Origin: Candidatus Nomurabacteria bacterium
Lineage (GTDB): Bacteria > Patescibacteriota > Minisyncoccia > Phycocordibacterales > UBA9973
Assembly (NCBI GenBank): GCA_026396065.1
Contig: JAPLXO010000010.1
Location: 1 to 57,057 of the forward strand
Reading direction: 5' to 3'
Length of the DNA stretch: 57,057 nucleotides
The stretch's first letter is position 1. Each line of letters begins with the position of its first letter. Of the stretch, positions 928 to 52,686 are shown one piece after another. A program made the position numbers and the translations under genes. The notes under the pieces are model-generated. The model did no database searches. It saw only the letters and a list, made by a program, of their open reading frames with translations, and was not told the DNA's origin.

Positions 928-1431
928 ATGAAAAATGAAAAAGTAATTATCTATACAGATGGAGCTGCGAGGGGGAATCCGGGTCCTGCGGGGTGGGGGG
1001 CTATCGTAATTCACCCCCTCCCAACCTCCCCCTTAGCGAAGGGGGAGGAGAAATTCAAAATTCATGAGCTTGGTGGAAGGTCAGATAATGCGACCAATAA
1101 TCAAATGGAGCTTTCTGCGCCGATTGGAGGGTTGAAGTATTTAAAGAAAATAAAATACGATGGACATGTGGAGATTTTTTCCGATTCTAAATATGTGATT
1201 CTAGGAATCACTGAGTGGATTTTCAATTGGCAGAAGAATAATTGGCGAAATGCTGCAAAGAAGCCAGTGGCGAATCAAGAACTTTGGGAAGAACTTTTTG
1301 AACTTACAAAACTTTTTAAAATCAAATGGACGTATGTGAAAGGTCATGCAGGTATCGAATACAACGAGCGTGCAGACGTGATAGCTACGAGTTTTGCTGA
1401 CGACGAACCTATTAAATTAATACAGCACTAA
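928..1431 (+). CDS. rnhA: ribonuclease HI
   Basis: IYTDGAARGNPGPAGWGAIV, TNNQMEL and NERADVIA motifs. The ATG at 928 is preferred over the TTG at 907 because TATAAT 915-920 lies 7 nt upstream. Confidence 0.85.
   Translation: MKNEKVIIYTDGAARGNPGPAGWGAIVIHPLPTSPLAKGEEKFKIHELGGRSDNATNNQMELSAPIGGLKYLKKIKYDGHVEIFSDSKYVILGITEWIFNWQKNNWRNAAKKPVANQELWEELFELTKLFKIKWTYVKGHAGIEYNERADVIATSFADDEPIKLIQH
1012..1050 (+). repeat. C-rich hairpin element, copy A (in frame inside rnhA)
   Basis: CACCCCCTCCCAACCTCCCCCTTAGCGAAGGGGGAGGAG. Arms 1025-1034 and 1039-1048 form a perfect 10-bp pair. It encodes HPLPTSPLAKGEE and matches the copy at 51790-51828 at 35 of 39 nt. Confidence 0.8.
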
Positions 1432-2675: not shown

Positions 2676-3252
2676 AATTATTTTCAATGACTTCCCAGTT
2701 TAGGTTTTCAAAAAAAGCATTTACATAATCTTTCTTTTGGCTTGTAGGATAATCATAAACAAAAGCATGTTCCCACATATCGATAGCGAGGATCATATCG
2801 CAACCATTGAGCTGACCGAGGTGTTGCTCGTCTACCGATGAAGAGAGAAGGTGATTATTCTTTTTATCATACCAAAGTACTGCCCAGCCGATACCACGAG
2901 TGAGAGCTAGAGTTTTTAAATTTGTTAAAAAACTTTCAAGTGTTCCAAAATTTTCTGTTAATGATTTTGCCAAGTCGCTACCTTCATTTAAATTTTTTGC
3001 TCCACCTGAAAGAGAATTGAAATACACTTCGTGATTTCTCATACCATTGTATTCGAAAGAAAAACGGCGAGACATTTCACCCAAAACATACATATTTTTT
3101 TCTGTATCAAGACTTAATTCAGCAATTTTTTCTATTACACCATTCACATTTTTTACATACCCTGCATAAAGCTTCAAATGCTCTTCAATATTTTTTGCAG
3201 AGATTCCTTTTAATTCTCCAATGTTAAATTTTTGTTCTTCAAATTTTGTCAT
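2656..3252 (-). CDS. Fe/Mn-family superoxide dismutase
   Basis: The NHEVYF and DMWEHAFVYDY ligand motifs are present, as is the N-terminal EEH. Its 3' end overlaps comEC by 20 nt. Confidence 0.8.
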   Translation of the reverse strand: MTKFEEQKFNIGELKGISAKNIEEHLKLYAGYVKNVNGVIEKIAELSLDTEKNMYVLGEMSRRFSFEYNGMRNHEVYFNSLSGGAKNLNEGSDLAKSLTENFGTLESFLTNLKTLALTRGIGWAVLWYDKKNNHLLSSSVDEQHLGQLNGCDMILAIDMWEHAFVYDYPTSQKKDYVNAFFENLNWEVIENNFKKALA

Positions 3253-3298: not shown

Positions 3299-4162
3299 AT
3301 GTTTCGGAAGTATTTTTTAATTATTTTCGTTGCCTTTCTACTGGTATTTAATATTTTTCTCTTTTATACGGACTATCAAAATAGCCATAGAATGCTGACT
3401 TTTGCGGCCTTGGATATAGGCCAAGGGGACGGGCTATTTATCGAGTCGCCCTCTGGTGTGCAAATGCTCGTGGACGGTGGGCCGATACATTCGATACTCG
3501 CTCCACTTTCAAAAGTGATGCCACTCTATGACAAACACATTGATGCAATTATGATTACCAATCCCGATGCGGATCATATCGGTGGTTTTATCGATATTTT
3601 GAAAAATTATGATGTGGATTATATTATCGAGCCGGGGACTTTTAACCCTTCGAAAACTTATGCGACAGTGGAGCAGTTAGTATTAGAAAAACATGTGAAG
3701 AAAATAATCGCTCGAAGAGGAATGAAATTAAATCTCGGCGCTGGTGCATATATAAATATTTTATTTCCTGATCGTGATGTGTCGACTTGGTCACCGAATG
3801 ATGGCTCTATCGTGGCGCGACTTTCATATGGAAATAATTCTGTGATGCTGACAGGGGATGCGACGCAGAAAACGGAAGGAATTATTTTAGGGGAAAATCA
3901 TGGGGAAAGTGCCCGACTTTTAAAATCTACAATTTTAAAAGTCGGGCATCACGGCTCGCGCACTTCTAGTTCTTCTGCATTCGTCCAAGCCGTCGCTCCC
4001 ACCTACGCAGTCATCTCCGACGGTCGCGACAACAAATACGGCCACCCACATCAGGAAACTTTGAACACTTTAAACTCTTTCAATATTAAAATCCTCCGCA
4101 CTGATTTACTTGGAACCATAATTTTTAAAGGGGATGGGAAGCTATTCACGCAAAGTAAATAA
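3299..4162 (+). CDS. membrane-anchored MBL-fold hydrolase, equivalent to the ComEC C-terminal domain as a separate gene
   Basis: N-terminal TM helix, LDIGQGDG, NPDADHIGG and KVGHHGS motifs as in the ComEC Lactamase_B domain. Confidence 0.7.
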   Translation: MFRKYFLIIFVAFLLVFNIFLFYTDYQNSHRMLTFAALDIGQGDGLFIESPSGVQMLVDGGPIHSILAPLSKVMPLYDKHIDAIMITNPDADHIGGFIDILKNYDVDYIIEPGTFNPSKTYATVEQLVLEKHVKKIIARRGMKLNLGAGAYINILFPDRDVSTWSPNDGSIVARLSYGNNSVMLTGDATQKTEGIILGENHGESARLLKSTILKVGHHGSRTSSSSAFVQAVAPTYAVISDGRDNKYGHPHQETLNTLNSFNIKILRTDLLGTIIFKGDGKLFTQSK

Positions 4163-8476: not shown

Positions 8477-10624
8477 ATGGAAAGAGATTATCCACTAGAG
8501 AAGGTTAGAAATATCGGAATTATCGCGCACATCGATGCGGGTAAGACTACGACTACAGAACGTGTGCTTTTTTATACTGGCGTATCACACAAAATCGGTG
8601 AAGTGCACGAAGGTGAGACTACTACAGACTGGATGGAACAAGAGCGTGAGAGAGGCATCACTATCACTTCTGCGGCTGTCACTTGTTTCTGGACACCGAC
8701 ATATGCAGGTACAGACAAATCAAAGAAACATCGTTTCAATATTATCGACACACCTGGGCACATCGACTTCACAGTGGAAGTGAAAAGATCTCTTCGCGTA
8801 TTAGACGGTGCTGTCGTAGTGTTCGACGGCGTGGCTGGAGTGGAACCTCAATCAGAAACAAACTGGCGTTATGCTGACGAAGCAAATGTCCCTCGTATTT
8901 GTTTTGTGAACAAGCTCGACAGAACAGGTGCATCATTTGAACATTCATATGCAACTATTTTAGACCGTCTTACAAAAAAGGCTGTTCGTATGCAAATACC
9001 TATTGGCCTTGAAGAAAAACATGAAGGTGTTGTCGATCTTTTAAAAATGAAAGCATATTACTTTGAAGGTGATATGGGTAATAAGGTTATTGAAAAAGAT
9101 ATTCCAGAAGACATGAAAGCTGATGCTGAAAAATATCACGGTGAACTTATCGAAAAAATAGTTGAACAAGATGATGCTCTAATGACAGAATATTTGGAAG
9201 GGAAAATCCCAACTATGGAAGTTTTAAAAAAGACTCTTCGTAAAGCTGTTATTGATAATGCGATTTTCCCAGTATACGCTGGATCAGCACTCAAGAACAA
9301 AGGAGTTCAGCTCGTACTCGACGGCGTCGTAGATTATCTTCCATCACCACTCGATATTCCACCTATACCTGGAATCAATGTTGATACTGAAGAACCAATG
9401 GTCAGAGAGGCTTCTGATAGTCAACCTTTCGCAGCTCTTGCTTTCAAAGTGGCTACAGATCCATTCGTAGGACAAATTATTTTCTTCCGTGTTTATTCCG
9501 GAACATTGACTGCTGGAAGTTATGTTTACAACCCTCGTACAAGAAACAAAGAAAGAATCGGACGTATTTTGCGTATGCATGCGAACGATCGTGAAGAAGT
9601 TAAGCAAGTTTTTGCTGGAGAAATCGCAGCTGCTGTTGGCTTGAAAGATACTATTACTTCCGATACTCTTTGTGATGAAAACAATCCTATTATTTTGGAC
9701 CGTATCGTTTTCCCTGAACCAGTTATCTCTCTACGTATTGAACCAAAGACAAAAGCTGACCAAGAAAAAATGGGTATGGCACTCAACCGTCTTGCTCAAG
9801 AAGATCCTACTTTTAAAGTTTCAACTGATCAAGAAACAGGAGAGACAATTATAGCCGGAATGGGAGAACTTCATCTTGAAATTATTGTCGATCGTATGAA
9901 ACGTGAATTTACTGTCGAAGCAAATGTCGGTAAACCTCAAGTAGCTTATCGTGAGACTATTACTGGTTCTGCAGAAGTTGAAGGTAAATATATTAAGCAA
10001 TCTGGTGGTCGTGGAAACTATGGTCACGTGAAGATCAAAGTAAAACCAATGGTACCGATGACGAAAGAAGAAGTTGCTGATTTACCAAAAAATACAAAAC
10101 GTGTAGATGGTTTTGAATTTATTAATACAATCAAAGGAGGTGCTATTCCACAAGAATACATCGCTCCTTGTGAAAAAGGATTTAAAGAAGGTCTCGATCG
10201 TGGTATTCTCGCTGGTTTCAAACTAGTGAATGTATCTGTAGATCTTTGGGATGGATCTTTCCACGAAGTGGACTCAAACGAAATGGCTTTCAAAATCGCA
10301 GCTAGTATGGCTGTGCAAGACGCTTGTCGTCAAGCTCGCCCAGTGATTTTAGAACCTATGATGAAAGTAGAAGTAGTGACTCCAGATAAATTCATGGGAG
10401 ACGTCACAGGAAATCTTTCTTCAAAACGTGGACTTATCGAAGGTATGGAAGACCGTGGTATGAACAAAGTCGTGAAAGCAATCGTTCCGCTTTCTGAAAT
10501 GTTCGGATACATGACTGGTCTACGCTCAATGACAGAAGGACGTGCTTCATTCACTATGGAATTCTTGAGATACGATATAGTACCTCAGAATGTTGCGGAT
10601 ACTATTATTGCAGCTAGAAAGTAA
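8477..10624 (+). CDS. fusA: elongation factor G
   Basis: [18 protein letters not shown] and NKLD G-motifs. 715 aa, full length. Confidence 0.97.
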
Positions 10625-10633
10625 TACAAAGAA

Positions 10634-10676
10634 CCTCACCCCTGACCCCTCTCCTTATAAAGGAGAGGGGTTTTGG
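10634..10676 (+). repeat. C-rich hairpin element, copy D, acting as the fusA terminator
   Basis: CCTCACCCCTGA then CCCCTCTCCTT (10646-10656) paired with AAGGAGAGGGG (10660-10670), a perfect 11-bp stem, followed by TTTT. Confidence 0.8.
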
Positions 10677-10681
10677 TTTGT

Positions 10682-10710
10682 TTGACTTTTAGTTTTATTT
10701 ATGCTAAACT
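10682..10710 (+). promoter_or_regulatory. sigma70-type promoter
   Basis: TTGACT (10682-10687), 17 nt spacer, TAAACT (10705-10710). Confidence 0.55.
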
Positions 10711-16319: not shown

Positions 16320-17168
16320 ATGAAGACATACAAACCTACATCTAAATCAAGAAGACAAATGACGAACGTCACTTACCGTGGCGTATTGACTGAATCTTCA
16401 CCTCTAAAAGCTCTAACTCATGGTTTCAAGAGAAGCGTAGGTAGAAATAATCTAGGACGTATTACTACTCGTCACAAAGGTGCAGGGCACAAGAGACTTT
16501 ATCGTGAAGTTGATTTTGTTTATGATAAGAAAGATATTCCAGCAAAAATAACAAGTGTTGAATATGATCCAAACCGTTCAGCCTTTATCGGTATCGCAGT
16601 ATATAAAGATGGTGAAAAACGCTATGTAGTTTTACCTCAAACAGTAAAAGTAGGTGATACATTTATAGTTTCAGAAAATGCTGAGTTAAAAGTAGGTAAC
16701 CGTTTACAACTTAGAAATATTCCAGTTGGAACATTTGTTTACAATATAGAAATGAAAGCTGGTTCTGGTGCAAAGATAGGAAGAAGTGCAGGAATTTTTG
16801 CTCAAGTTGTAGCTAATGCTGATGGTTATACAAATATCAAAATGCCAAGTACAGAAGTTCGTAAAGTTTCTGAACTAGCATGGGCATCTGTAGGATCTGT
16901 ATCAAACGAAGAACATCATTTAGAAAATTACGGAAAAGCAGGACGTTCACGATGGAAAGGTATTCGCCCAACAGTTCGCGGAACAGCCATGAACCCTGTC
17001 GACCACCCATACGGAGGAGGAGAAGGACGCCAAGGACGCGGAACACGAAGACCAAAGACTCTATGGGGTAAGGTTACAGGAGGAAGAAAGTCTCGAACTC
17101 CAAAGAAATACTCAAATGTATTCATCGTTTCTCGACGAAAGACAGGAAAGAATAGAAAATCTTCTTAA
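16320..17168 (+). CDS. rplB: 50S ribosomal protein L2
   Basis: RGTAMNPVDHPYGGGEGR. Confidence 0.97.
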   Translation: MKTYKPTSKSRRQMTNVTYRGVLTESSPLKALTHGFKRSVGRNNLGRITTRHKGAGHKRLYREVDFVYDKKDIPAKITSVEYDPNRSAFIGIAVYKDGEKRYVVLPQTVKVGDTFIVSENAELKVGNRLQLRNIPVGTFVYNIEMKAGSGAKIGRSAGIFAQVVANADGYTNIKMPSTEVRKVSELAWASVGSVSNEEHHLENYGKAGRSRWKGIRPTVRGTAMNPVDHPYGGGEGRQGRGTRRPKTLWGKVTGGRKSRTPKKYSNVFIVSRRKTGKNRKSS

Positions 17169-17206: not shown

Positions 17207-17208
17207 TA

Positions 17209-17244
17209 CCTCATCCCTCGCTTCTCCTTATAAAGTAGAAGGAG
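17209..17244 (+). repeat. C-rich hairpin element, copy E1 (degenerate)
   Basis: CCTCATCCCTCGCTTCTCCTTATAAAGTAGAAGGAG aligns with copy D. Confidence 0.6.
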
Positions 17245-17250
17245 CTAAAA

Positions 17251-17283
17251 CCATCTCCCTGATAAGGAGAGGGTGGTGTGAGG
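17251..17283 (-). repeat. C-rich hairpin element, copy E2 (inverted orientation)
   Basis: The reverse complement CCTCACACCACCCTCTCCTTATCAGGGAGATGG aligns with copy D. Confidence 0.65.
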
Positions 17284-50511: not shown

Positions 50512-51933
50512 TTATTGTTGGTCCAAAGTCAACCGGACTTGCTCTAATAGAGATTGTATTCTTTTTTCGTCTTTTGCTTCTCCGATCATACGCACTATTG
50601 GCTCTGTATTTGAGGGTCTTAAATGTACCCAAGAGTTGTCGGCAAAGTCAAAGCGTATGCCATCTAATGTGTCTATTTTTCCATCAGGAAATTTTTGTTT
50701 TAGTTTTTCGTAAACAATAGGCAAGTCGTGCTTTAGTCCTATTTTGTCTTTTTGTGTAAAATATTTTGGTAGTTCATTTACAATTTCTGAAATTTTTTTA
50801 TTTTCTGTTGCCATCAGTTCGAGAGTGAGGGCCATACCTACCAAGCTGTCGCGAGCAGGATTTATTCTTGGATATATTATTCCTCCACTACCTTCACCAC
50901 CGACAAGGGCATTTACTTCGAGCATTTTGTTCACAACATTTGGCTCACCGACTTTTGTGCGATATAGTTTTGTTTTGTATTCTGTTGCCAAGTCTTCACA
51001 TATTTTTGTCGTCGACATATTTACGACGACGTCTTTTATTGGCACTGATAAACGACTTTCTTTCATGAGAGCGCTTTTCACTCCAACTACAACTGTATAT
51101 TCTTCAAAAATTATTTCTCCTTTTTCATTTACCATCACCAAGCGATCGGCATCAGGATCTTGAGCGAAACCAATGTCAGCATTATTATCTTTCACTGCTT
51201 GTGCAATTTGTTCTAGATTTTGCACTGTCGGTTCGGGCATATGTGTAAATTCACCAGTTTGTTCTTTATTAATTTGAAAAACTTCACATCCCAAGCTTTC
51301 TAATAATTCTAATGTAATAATACTACCAGCACTATTTATAGGATCATGGGCGACTTTAAATTTTTTACTTTTTATTTTTTCAACATCAATATTTTTTAAA
51401 ATTTCATCAATATGTATTTTACGAAACTTTTGGTTGTCTATTTCTGACCCCATAGGATTATCCTGTGTGGTAAACCTCACCCCAACCTTCTCCTCTGAGG
51501 AGAGGGAGTCCTTATTTTTTATTATTTCTTCAATTTGGCTAGGCGTTAAAAAAAGGCCTTTGTCATTCATGAATTTTATCCCATTGTATTCTGGGGGATT
51601 GTGTGAAGCTGTGATCATTATGCCACCACTAAAACCAAGTTTTCTGATCAACAAAAGCATTGAAGGCGTCGGTATTATGCCTGCATATTCAAATTGTACC
51701 CCTTCTTTTTCACAGGCTTGTTTGAAAGCTGAAAACATCAAAGGCCCTGTCTTTCTTGCATCCCGGCCTATTAAAATTTTATGTTTCTGCTCCTCCCCAT
51801 TTGCCAAGGGGGAGGCTGGGAGGGGGTGCTTTTTTATAAGTTTTGCAAAAGCCAAACCAAATTCGTAAGCAATTTGCTCATTTAAATCTTTACCCCATAT
51901 TCCTCTATACCCCGAGACATTTAATTTTGCCAT
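50512..51933 (-). CDS. phosphoglucomutase/phosphomannomutase-family mutase
   Basis: ITASHNPPEYNGIKF active-site loop and FAQDPDADR metal loop. 473 aa, carrying two repeat-derived inserts. Confidence 0.88.
   Translation of the reverse strand: MAKLNVSGYRGIWGKDLNEQIAYEFGLAFAKLIKKHPLPASPLANGEEQKHKILIGRDARKTGPLMFSAFKQACEKEGVQFEYAGIIPTPSMLLLIRKLGFSGGIMITASHNPPEYNGIKFMNDKGLFLTPSQIEEIIKNKDSLSSEEKVGVRFTTQDNPMGSEIDNQKFRKIHIDEILKNIDVEKIKSKKFKVAHDPINSAGSIITLELLESLGCEVFQINKEQTGEFTHMPEPTVQNLEQIAQAVKDNNADIGFAQDPDADRLVMVNEKGEIIFEEYTVVVGVKSALMKESRLSVPIKDVVVNMSTTKICEDLATEYKTKLYRTKVGEPNVVNKMLEVNALVGGEGSGGIIYPRINPARDSLVGMALTLELMATENKKISEIVNELPKYFTQKDKIGLKHDLPIVYEKLKQKFPDGKIDTLDGIRFDFADNSWVHLRPSNTEPIVRMIGEAKDEKRIQSLLEQVRLTLDQQ
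51475..51506 (+). repeat. C-rich hairpin element, copy C (inside the mutase CDS, antisense to the gene)
   Basis: CCTCACCCCAACCTTCTCCTCTGAGGAGAGGG aligns with copy D. It is read on the minus strand as SLSSEEKVGVR. Confidence 0.7.
51790..51828 (-). repeat. C-rich hairpin element, copy B (in frame inside the mutase CDS)
   Basis: The reverse complement CACCCCCTCCCAGCCTCCCCCTTGGCAAATGGGGAGGAG encodes HPLPASPLANGEE, in the same frame and orientation as copy A. Confidence 0.8.
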
Positions 51934-51949
51934 ATTTTTATTTTAGCAT

Positions 51950-51990
51950 AAAAAAATCCCTTCACACTACATGTCGTAGCGTGAAGGGAT
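51950..51990 (-). terminator. rho-independent terminator (minus strand)
   Basis: ATCCCTTCAC (51956-51965) pairs with GTGAAGGGAT (51981-51990), with an inner CTAC/GTAG stem. The A6 on the plus strand gives a U-run on the minus strand. Confidence 0.8.
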
Positions 51991-52006
51991 TTTACTCGCA
52001 TAAATT

Positions 52007-52513
52007 CTAATTTGGAATTTGCGCGAAGATGATAGTGTCCAGAGGTATATTTGTTTCCTCTTTGAATACCTGTCCAAGGACTTCGATTTTGCCGTTGATG
52101 TGTACGACAATGTTGGCAGGACCGAAGGTGGTTTTGGTTTTCCGGGTGTGAATGAAAAACTTTCCTTTCCTTTTTGTTGTTGGTAACTTCATTGCAATCT
52201 TGCCTGCTGACTCAATTGAACAATGAACAAAACCTGTTTTTCTTAGCTGTTTCTGCATTGCACTCCATTTGATAGACTCGCTATCTGGTAGCAAGTCAGA
52301 AGCTTTAAAGTAAACAACGTGGTTTTCGTCCGGTATTTCCTTTACTGGATATTTGCCAGTATCGAAAATTTGATTTGCCGGTCCCACGACATTGATTCGC
52401 GGGTGACTTTTTACTGTTTGTGGAAATGGAGTTTTACCTTTATGGTCTCCATTCTTAATGTGCATTTCTCCCAGAATTGCTACATTCTTGAAAAGGTTTA
52501 GTTTTAACTTCAT
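52007..52513 (-). CDS. orphan 168-aa protein
   Basis: MKLKLNLFKNV... The ATG at 52513 lies inside track ORF ending at 52567, downstream of the minus-strand promoter. Confidence 0.5.
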   Translation of the reverse strand: MKLKLNLFKNVAILGEMHIKNGDHKGKTPFPQTVKSHPRINVVGPANQIFDTGKYPVKEIPDENHVVYFKASDLLPDSESIKWSAMQKQLRKTGFVHCSIESAGKIAMKLPTTKRKGKFFIHTRKTKTTFGPANIVVHINGKIEVLGQVFKEETNIPLDTIIFAQIPN

Positions 52514-52563
52514 TGTCTTACTTGTTTTTTTGTTTATTTTTTTATTGTGAACTATATCTGAAC

Positions 52564-52592
52564 ACATTAAGATAAATAAGGTAAAAAGTCAA
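52564..52592 (-). promoter_or_regulatory. sigma70-type promoter (minus strand)
   Basis: Reverse complement reads TTGACT (52587-52592), 17 nt spacer, TAATGT (52564-52569). Confidence 0.55.
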
Positions 52593-52617: not shown

Positions 52618-52686
52618 CGTTTTGCCTGCCCGCCTTGGCTATCTAGCCGGCGGGATTCTTCAAGCGCGAGTTTGAAAACGTTTTTT
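52618..52686. repeat. GC-rich structured element G1
   Basis: Outer stem CGTTTT/AAAACG. Inner hairpin CCCGCC-TT-GGCTA..TAGCC-GGCGGG (52629-52654). It shares TGCCCGCC and GGCGGGATT strings with G2 and G3. Confidence 0.5.

Follow-up and report, generated by a model that had tools for sequence, protein, structure and literature searches.

Two triplex-motif-type repeats in opposite orientations within a phosphohexomutase gene of a Nomurabacteria genome

How does one housekeeping gene come to carry two members of a dispersed repeat family, facing in opposite directions, and still look able to encode a working enzyme? The question is raised by a mutase gene in a 57-kb stretch of DNA from Candidatus Nomurabacteria (57,057 nucleotides, hereafter the window). 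The GC content of the window is 34%, and the names on homologues of its genes are Patescibacteria, Nomurabacteria or Minisyncoccia. An initial annotation, made from the letters of the DNA, had placed two repeat copies inside the mutase gene and had argued for repeated insertion rather than ordinary divergence. We propose that the two copies, B and C, are very probably separate insertions of a dispersed G/C-rich repeat of about 36-40 nt, of the BoxC/PIT/triplex type, which would be translated as floppy loops of an enzyme that stays functional.

The hairpins of copies A and D1 are better than those of shuffles (z = -3.6 and -4.6, respectively), and a T-rich tail after the D1 hairpin makes this unit look like an intrinsic terminator. 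For copies B and C, folding energy does not set the hairpins apart from C/G-rich shuffles of the same composition (z about 0). It was therefore dropped as evidence for these two and a three-block detector was used instead. The detector takes an 8-nt pyrimidine block for which a mirror image lies upstream at a distance of 1-5 nt and a reverse complement lies downstream at 3-10 nt. With at most one mismatch it finds A, B and D1, and 100 shuffles give 0 units. With at most two mismatches C, E and F are added, which brings the window to exactly six units, whereas shuffles contain 0.017 on average (Table 1). Both copies in the mutase gene are recovered in this way, at 51792-51826 and 51475-51506, just where the initial annotation had seen them. 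Three of the six units (A, B and C) are read in frame within housekeeping genes; the other three (D1, E and F) are intergenic. E and F are inverted relative to each other. Loop 2, as scored by the detector, is 2-5 nt long, and is 3 nt in A, B and C, in agreement with the published length of about 3 nt. A search of Rfam found no family at the gathering score anywhere in the window.

Table 1. Positions in the window of the host gene and of the six repeat units, with the detector match, the mismatches allowed, the paired hairpin positions, the mirror positions and the length of loop 1.
Feature	Position	Strand	Detector match	Mismatches	Hairpin	Mirror	Loop 1 (nt)	Remarks
Alpha-D-phosphohexomutase gene (PGM/PMM/GlmM family)	50512..51933	-						473-aa ORF; all four PGM_PMM Pfam domains found
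Copy A, A/B-type	1012..1050	+	1014-1048	at most 1	8/8	8/8	8	In frame in the RNase HI gene, read as HPLPTSPLAKGEE; reference for copy B
Copy B, A/B-type triplex-motif unit	51790..51828	-	51792-51826	at most 1	7/8	8/8	8	Residues 36-48 of the mutase, HPLPASPLANGEE
Copy C, C/D-type triplex-motif unit	51475..51509	+	51475-51506	at most 2	7/8	6/8	5	Antisense to the mutase, partly decayed; residues 143-153, SLSSEEKVGVR
D1, C/D-type	10634..10671	+	10634-10669	at most 1	8/8	7/8	7	Intergenic, 10 nt past the stop of ORF 8477-10624
E, decayed C/D-type	17208-17241	+	17208-17241	at most 2				Spacer after ORF 16320-17168
F, decayed C/D-type	17251-17283	-	17251-17283	at most 2				Spacer after ORF 16320-17168

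BoxC/PIT/triplex-motif (TM) repeats have been known since the 1990s, and we know of no transposase for them. Holder et al. 2015 (PMC4666352), who cite Hoyne et al. 2000 for these repeats, define the motif by three blocks: a loop joins the C-rich stem to its G-rich complement, and after a 3-nt loop comes another G-rich block. In E. coli they report it exclusively between genes. The window units have the same three-block layout. Their C-rich stem is 8-9 nt long, a loop leads to the complementary G-rich stem, and beyond a linker of about 3 nt lies another G-rich block, the mirror of the first. Like the published repeats, they are multi-copy, dispersed, present in many phyla and found as inverted pairs (here E and F). 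The differences are in the blocks, CCCTCNCCC in TMECO as against CCTCCCCC and CCCTCTCC in the window units; in loop 1, which is 3-6 nt in the published TM but 5-8 nt here, above the published range in A and B; and in location, TMECO being intergenic in E. coli whereas half of the window units are in genes. The strict TMECO pattern, CCCTCNCCC N3-6 GGGNGAGGG N3 GGGNGAGGG, gives no regex match on either strand of the window, and because of this absence the units are not TMECO itself. They would rather be members of the wider G/C-rich triplex-motif class, an assignment that rests on block geometry, the folding computed being of the duplex type only. In the literature searched, BoxC/PIT/triplex-motif repeats are described only between genes, and copies inside genes were not found. 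Copies B and C consist of a hairpin plus a mirror third arm and are not plain palindromes.

Copy B had been reported in the sense orientation at 51790-51828, between FAKLIKK and KILIGR, with one mismatch in its stem; coordinates, peptide and mismatch are all correct. Its sense strand, from 51828 to 51790, is CACCCCCTCCCAGCCTCCCCCTTGGCAAATGGGGAGGAG, in which the third arm CCCCCTCC, the linker CAG, the C-stem CCTCCCCC, the 8-nt loop and the G-stem (T)GGGGAGG follow one another. The codons CAC CCC CTC CCA GCC TCC CCC TTG GCA AAT GGG GAG GAG are read as HPLPASPLANGEE, flanked by ..FAKLIKK (helix 19-35) and KILIGR (strand 52-57). All six frames of the unit are open. Over 39 nt copy B shares 90% identity with copy A (1012-1050), and the two are read in the same frame. 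The insert is absent from 119 of 119 aligned homologues; that is, in the alignment of 120 sequences the PASPLAN columns are filled by the window protein, P0001, only. The site is also empty in the DNA of the two nearest relatives, the loci L001 (protein P0002) and L003 (protein P0003), which have AAAAAT AAT AAT TTA CCA AAA AAG ATT there. Here 54 nt in the window replace 21 nt of the relatives, which leaves the gene 33 nt (11 codons) longer. Some of the codons flanking the unit are altered too, and comparison of the filled site with the empty sites of L001 and L003 gives no target-site duplication. The event was either not a clean paste, or the flanks drifted afterwards. Judged from these alignments, copy B is a recent, lineage-specific insertion.

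Copy C has its pyrimidine-first strand on the window's plus strand, where positions 51475-51506 read CCTCACCCCAACCTTCTCCTCTGAGGAGAGGG; the mutase reads the complement. The blocks are CCTCACCCC-AA(C)-CTTCTCCT-loop-AGGAGAGGG, with a linker of 3 nt and a shifted hairpin register. The head and hairpin are laid out as in the intergenic unit at 10634-10671, and the initial description of copy C as an antisense unit of that layout, read as SLSSEEKVGVR, stands. An orthologous copy is found in L001 at 3146-3177, CTCCCTCTCCTCTCAGGAGAGGGCTGGGGTGAGG, and is better preserved, with a perfect 8-bp stem (hairpin 8/8) and a mirror of 7/8. The left junction is identical in the window and L001, AAAAATAA(A/G)GA followed directly by CTCCCTCTCC. 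Copy C is absent from L003 and from every more distant homologue aligned. At this site L003 is AT-rich and encodes ENLNKENHFSPV, similar to more distant homologues such as P0007 (ENLQNETYSPV). Neither target-site duplications nor terminal inverted repeats are found at copy C when the junctions of L001 and L003 are compared.

The inserts stand apart from the gene in composition. The GC content is 69% in copy B and 61% in copy C, compared with 35% for the rest of the mutase gene, and the GC3 values are 77% and 82%, compared with 27%. Of the codons in the inserts, TCC (three in B and C together) and AGG (one, in copy C) are found nowhere else in the gene. Copy C uses GAG and AAG where the gene usually has GAA and AAA. 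These codons bear on a concern raised at the outset, that both peptides might prove to be conserved parts of the mutase family. For copy B the 119 homologues without it answer the concern. For copy C the peptide SLSSEEK is superficially like the family consensus NLTEEEK (L..EEK), so that it looks conserved as protein but not as DNA. The likeness is misleading because the codons are foreign to the gene and the site in L003 is AT-rich. Such a fit to the consensus is not required of a pure passenger. Copy C is foreign DNA and older than copy B, as judged from its shifted hairpin register, its two mirror mismatches and its presence in a relative. It is not private to the window lineage, since the relative P0002 carries the better-preserved copy.

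The distribution of copy C among the relatives conflicts locally with the tree. Identity is 86% between P0002 and P0003, but only 74% (P0002) and 72% (P0003) in comparison with P0001. A tree computed without the insert regions makes P0002 and P0003 sisters, with support of 100/98. Since P0002 carries copy C and its sister P0003 does not, the history of the unit needs at least two events: on the tree without the insert columns its presence takes two changes, and one change is allowed by 0% of the bootstrap trees. The identity of P0001 to P0002 exceeds that of P0002 to P0003 at residues 121-180 only. In an AU test the P0001+P0002 clade has p = 0.063, by which this grouping is still marginally possible.

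Quite possibly, copy C was gained once, in the ancestor of P0001, P0002 and P0003, and was lost in P0003, e.g., when a short patch recombined with an element-free allele. The window and L001 share the left junction, the orientation, the frame and the loop type of the unit; the other C/D copies in the window have TTATAAA loops instead. Common to both are, in addition, a D preceding the unit, a downstream linker shortened by about 8 aa and the residues D.N..G.EI.DN. Because the shortened linker is found in both, a single origin is slightly favoured. The P0001+P0002 tree is, moreover, not quite rejected. What a single gain explains less well is P0003, whose segment at this site resembles the ancestral state seen in P0007; a simple deletion cannot restore that state, and outside residues 121-180 P0002 and P0003 are firmly sisters. 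It may instead be, and we hold this as a real though lesser possibility, that copy C entered at one and the same nucleotide on two occasions, or that a short patch moved between lineages, through site preference or homologous recombination. The two changes on the insert-free tree and the confinement of the P0001-P0002 closeness to one short segment would then be expected. Units of the same sub-type with 3-4 differences from C occur in the same metagenomes and in viral contigs, e.g., L167, and the helix1-strand2 loop that received copy B has also taken up unrelated GC-rich inserts in P0008 and P0037. However, about 6 of 36 nt are different between the C copies of the window and L001, a divergence no lower than that of the gene around them. 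Any transfer would therefore be old, and the shared downstream shortening would have to be parallel as well.

The GC-rich insert of P0008 in the helix1-strand2 loop is a perfect palindrome, GGCCTGCCTGCGCAGGCAGGCC. A private 6-aa insert of the mutase, SRLSVP, was considered as a third copy and rejected; its DNA is AT-rich and without the blocks.

The mutase itself looks functional, since all four catalytic motifs are present. Its database homologues are named phosphoglucosamine mutase or phosphomannomutase. The closest solved relatives by sequence are 9du5, 2f7l and 1wqa, archaeal-type PMM/PGM enzymes, and the best fold matches of the predicted structure are 1wqa and 9du5, with TM scores of 0.85-0.91. 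TASHNP, DPDADR, GEG and RPSNTEP, which we take to be the phosphoserine, metal, sugar and phosphate loops, respectively, are invariant columns in the alignment of 120 sequences. The AF2 model, made with the same 120 sequences, has a mean pLDDT of 92.9 and is weak within the chain only at residues 31-50 and 151-170. The first segment (block means of 80 and 58, the latter for residues 41-50) holds the copy B coil, between model helix 19-35 and strand 52-57; the second (block means of 60 and 79) holds the tail of copy C, in the linker of domains I and II. Aligned solved homologues have gaps at both sites. The model thus predicts both inserts to be low-confidence surface loops of an otherwise confident phosphohexomutase. 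From the usual alpha/beta topology we infer that the helix-to-strand loop of copy B and the active site are on opposite sides of the sheet.

Contigs from other samples bear on whether the inserts truly belong to the gene and where their limits are. Logan contigs of four freshwater metagenomes (X1-X4, from two studies) were compared with positions 51300-52000. One X1 contig spans both inserts and their flanks, and in X3 and X4, which belong to the second study, short contigs connect each insert with the mutase gene with 0 differences. No RNA run was found to contain the stretch. The summed word depth in X1 is about 200 over copy B, compared with 19 for the flanking gene, and in X3 and X4 it is 30-40 over copy C. 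The depth rises over B and C because other contigs carry copies with unrelated flanks. These are near-identical, 36-41 nt long and with 2-4 differences in the four metagenomes, and the boundaries of their matches, 51790-51828/30 for B and 51473-51508/9 for C, give the limits of the units.

We propose the following course of events. The unit would be a hairpin with a C-rich arm, a loop and a G-rich arm, and in front of it a pyrimidine arm, the mirror of the C-rich one. Some copies would have landed inside genes of this gene-dense, 34% GC Patescibacteria genome and would survive there when the net change in length is a multiple of three, when the C/G-rich sequence is without stop codons and when the site is a permissive surface loop, the helix1-to-strand2 loop of domain I for copy B and the domain I-II linker for copy C. 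The inserts would then be translated as Pro/Ser/Gly/Glu-rich floppy loops, and are presumably neutral. Movement is most readily pictured as copying, in which a trans-acting function, or else repair or replication, would duplicate the unit in a structured, single-stranded form.

It is very hard to credit that the inserts come from ordinary divergence in variable loops or from faulty assembly at the repeats. Both sites are indeed length-variable in the family, and an X2 contig breaks beside copy C. But copy B is matched over its 39 nt by a copy 50 kb away, the codon usage of the inserts is foreign to the gene, the sites are empty in relatives, and the contigs of other samples and of a second study join the inserts to the gene without a difference. 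The initial argument for repeated insertion is borne out by the empty sites and the foreign codons, and also by the opposite orientations, different sub-types and different ages of the two units. An improbable, if less remote, alternative is that the inserts have acquired a function, either as a protein docking loop or as a nucleic-acid structure within the gene, such as a pause, RNase or recombination site. Of six possible readings A and B share one, and with six open frames in B this choice is not forced by stops; the translation of copy C retains the family's L..EEK, and D1 resembles a terminator. Such a role fits poorly with a copy B that is private to one lineage, with the low predicted confidence at both loops and with hairpins in B and C that are decaying rather than maintained. 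As to known relatives, Holder et al. 2015 (PMC4666352) give no hint of a regulatory role, and earlier work that they summarise (refs 22 and 41 of that paper) found PIT elements to be without promoter or terminator activity. Two tolerated insertions are the preferred reading.

The mobility of the BoxC/PIT/triplex-motif class had never been shown previously. Two units that differ in sub-type, orientation and age in one gene, with empty sites in relatives, amount to dated before-and-after insertion events, and this dated pair, together with the local tree conflict, is the main addition of the mutase case. The finding bears on how the proteins of ultra-small bacteria gain extra loops. For annotators and phylogeneticists it means that such loops can be repeat-derived and can cause local conflicts between trees.

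Other short repeats resemble the window units in part. REP/BIME sequences are short, structured, multi-copy and non-autonomous, and are believed to move as single-stranded hairpins with the help of a function supplied in trans. The window units share the first four of these properties, but REPs are extragenic, with a conserved GTAG-type head and a paired RAYT gene, and the window units are without such a head: GTAG is next to none of the six. A closer parallel in behaviour is provided by the Rickettsia palindromic elements (RPEs), reportedly described by Ogata et al. in 2000. RPEs are summarised in a review of MITEs (PMC10969869). Like the window units, they are palindromic and have entered unrelated housekeeping genes in frame, in a genome that is small, AT-rich and gene-dense; on translation they give additional surface segments that the fold can accommodate, and they can occur more than once per gene. 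RPEs, however, are about 100-150 bp long, Rickettsia-specific and conserved in peptide, whereas the window units are 36-40 nt long and lie in a Patescibacteria genome; the units, unlike RPEs, have the mirror third arm and cores across phyla, and the two have no sequence similarity. The triplex-motif repeats described here are a clear example of repeats that behave like RPEs in a CPR genome. MITEs of the Correia, ERIC and Nezha types are also known in genes (PMC10969869), and, like the window units, are small non-autonomous repeats able to form in-frame fusions. They differ in exceeding 100 bp and in having terminal inverted repeats and target-site duplications, neither of which is seen at the filled and empty sites of B and C.

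The units are dispersed well beyond the window. The exact 19-nt A/B core, made of third arm, linker and C-stem, is found at at least 119 genome loci, with hosts in Bacteroidota, Chloroflexota, Deinococcota, many Proteobacteria, Firmicutes and Patescibacteria, and an exact complementary arm follows the core by 2-12 nt in 75 of 123 matches. Viral contigs of IMG/VR carry cores of both sub-types, at at least 41 and at least 118 loci; the full motif is present in 55-67% of the viral matches (27 of 49 of the A/B type and 113 of 168 of the C/D type). It is tempting to propose, though we consider it rather unlikely as a whole, that triplex-motif units are active mobile DNA defined by structure, carried across phyla by phages, re-entering or being exchanged at the same housekeeping codon in separate lineages (as with copy C in the non-sisters P0001 and P0002) and tolerated as stop-free loops of 3n nucleotides. 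Within 1.2 kb of the A/B core, an ORF with a DUF559 domain (Pfam E about 1e-33) lies at 3 of the 119 genome loci, taken as an unbiased sample, against about 0.2 expected by a rough reckoning, and 97% of the copies are solo; no other neighbour family recurs more often within that distance at these loci. Three loci are too few for DUF559 to be adopted as the established mobilising enzyme, and the nuclease is a weak candidate for mobilisation. Its neighbourhood may be enriched, in a way compatible with a non-autonomous element that has rare master copies.

The loop between helix 1 and strand 2 of the phosphohexomutase, in which copy B of the triplex-motif repeat is located, is a recurrent landing site for inserts. 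The same loop of the homologue P0008 holds a peptide coded by a perfect GC-rich palindrome unlike copy B, and a private insert, PRQDGAS, is also found there in the homologue P0037. A third homologue, P0015, carries a private 11-aa insert, PARHPEEGAGG, and its coding DNA has the arms GCCTGCCCGCC...GGCGGG in common with an intergenic GC-rich motif of the window. These two elements seem to belong to a second family of repeats, which likewise enters the mutase gene.

The window mutase has a third private insert, six residues long (SRLSVP, residues 293–298), which sits in a domain III loop whose length varies. This insert was ruled out as a repeat copy because its DNA is AT-rich and without block structure.

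Coordinates of inserts, repeat units and neighboring genes
Feature	Sequence	Position	Details
P0008 insert	L124	about 330-355	GGCCTGCCTGCGCAGGCAGGCC; GGLPAQAG
P0015 insert	L123	about 4066-4098	CCTGCCCGCCATCCCGAGGAGGGAGCAGGCGGG
GC-rich motif	window	52622-52658	
SRLSVP insert	window	51040-51057	
Unannotated ORF	window	52007-52567	186 aa
GIY-YIG minigene	L001	1350-1616	88 aa
D1 hairpin and tail	window	10644-10682	13-pair hairpin, then TTGGTTTGTT
DUF559 gene	L095	411-929	
DUF559 gene	L084	817-1422	
DUF559 gene	L036	4079-4414	
IMG/VR contig	L178		7.3 kb; 5 C/D-type copies
IMG/VR contig	L184		3.3 kb; 5 C/D-type copies

The smpB gene precedes the mutase gene in L001, the locus of a relative with copy C, and in L123, the locus of P0015, whereas in the window an unannotated ORF is the upstream neighbor in place of smpB, so the 5′ flank of the mutase gene has been rearranged. 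L001 also has a GIY-YIG minigene on the upstream side of its mutase gene, past smpB.

The hairpin of the intergenic C/D-type unit D1 lies 20 nt past the stop codon of a 715-aa ORF, and the unit may double as the intrinsic terminator of that ORF. Elsewhere, C/D-type units crowd some IMG/VR viral contigs, at one per 0.7–1.5 kb. DUF559 genes adjoin A/B-type units in unrelated genomes, and the N-terminal extension of the L095 DUF559 ORF runs through two repeat units (..PALPLSGEGV.. and ..PPPEKGEVGRG..).
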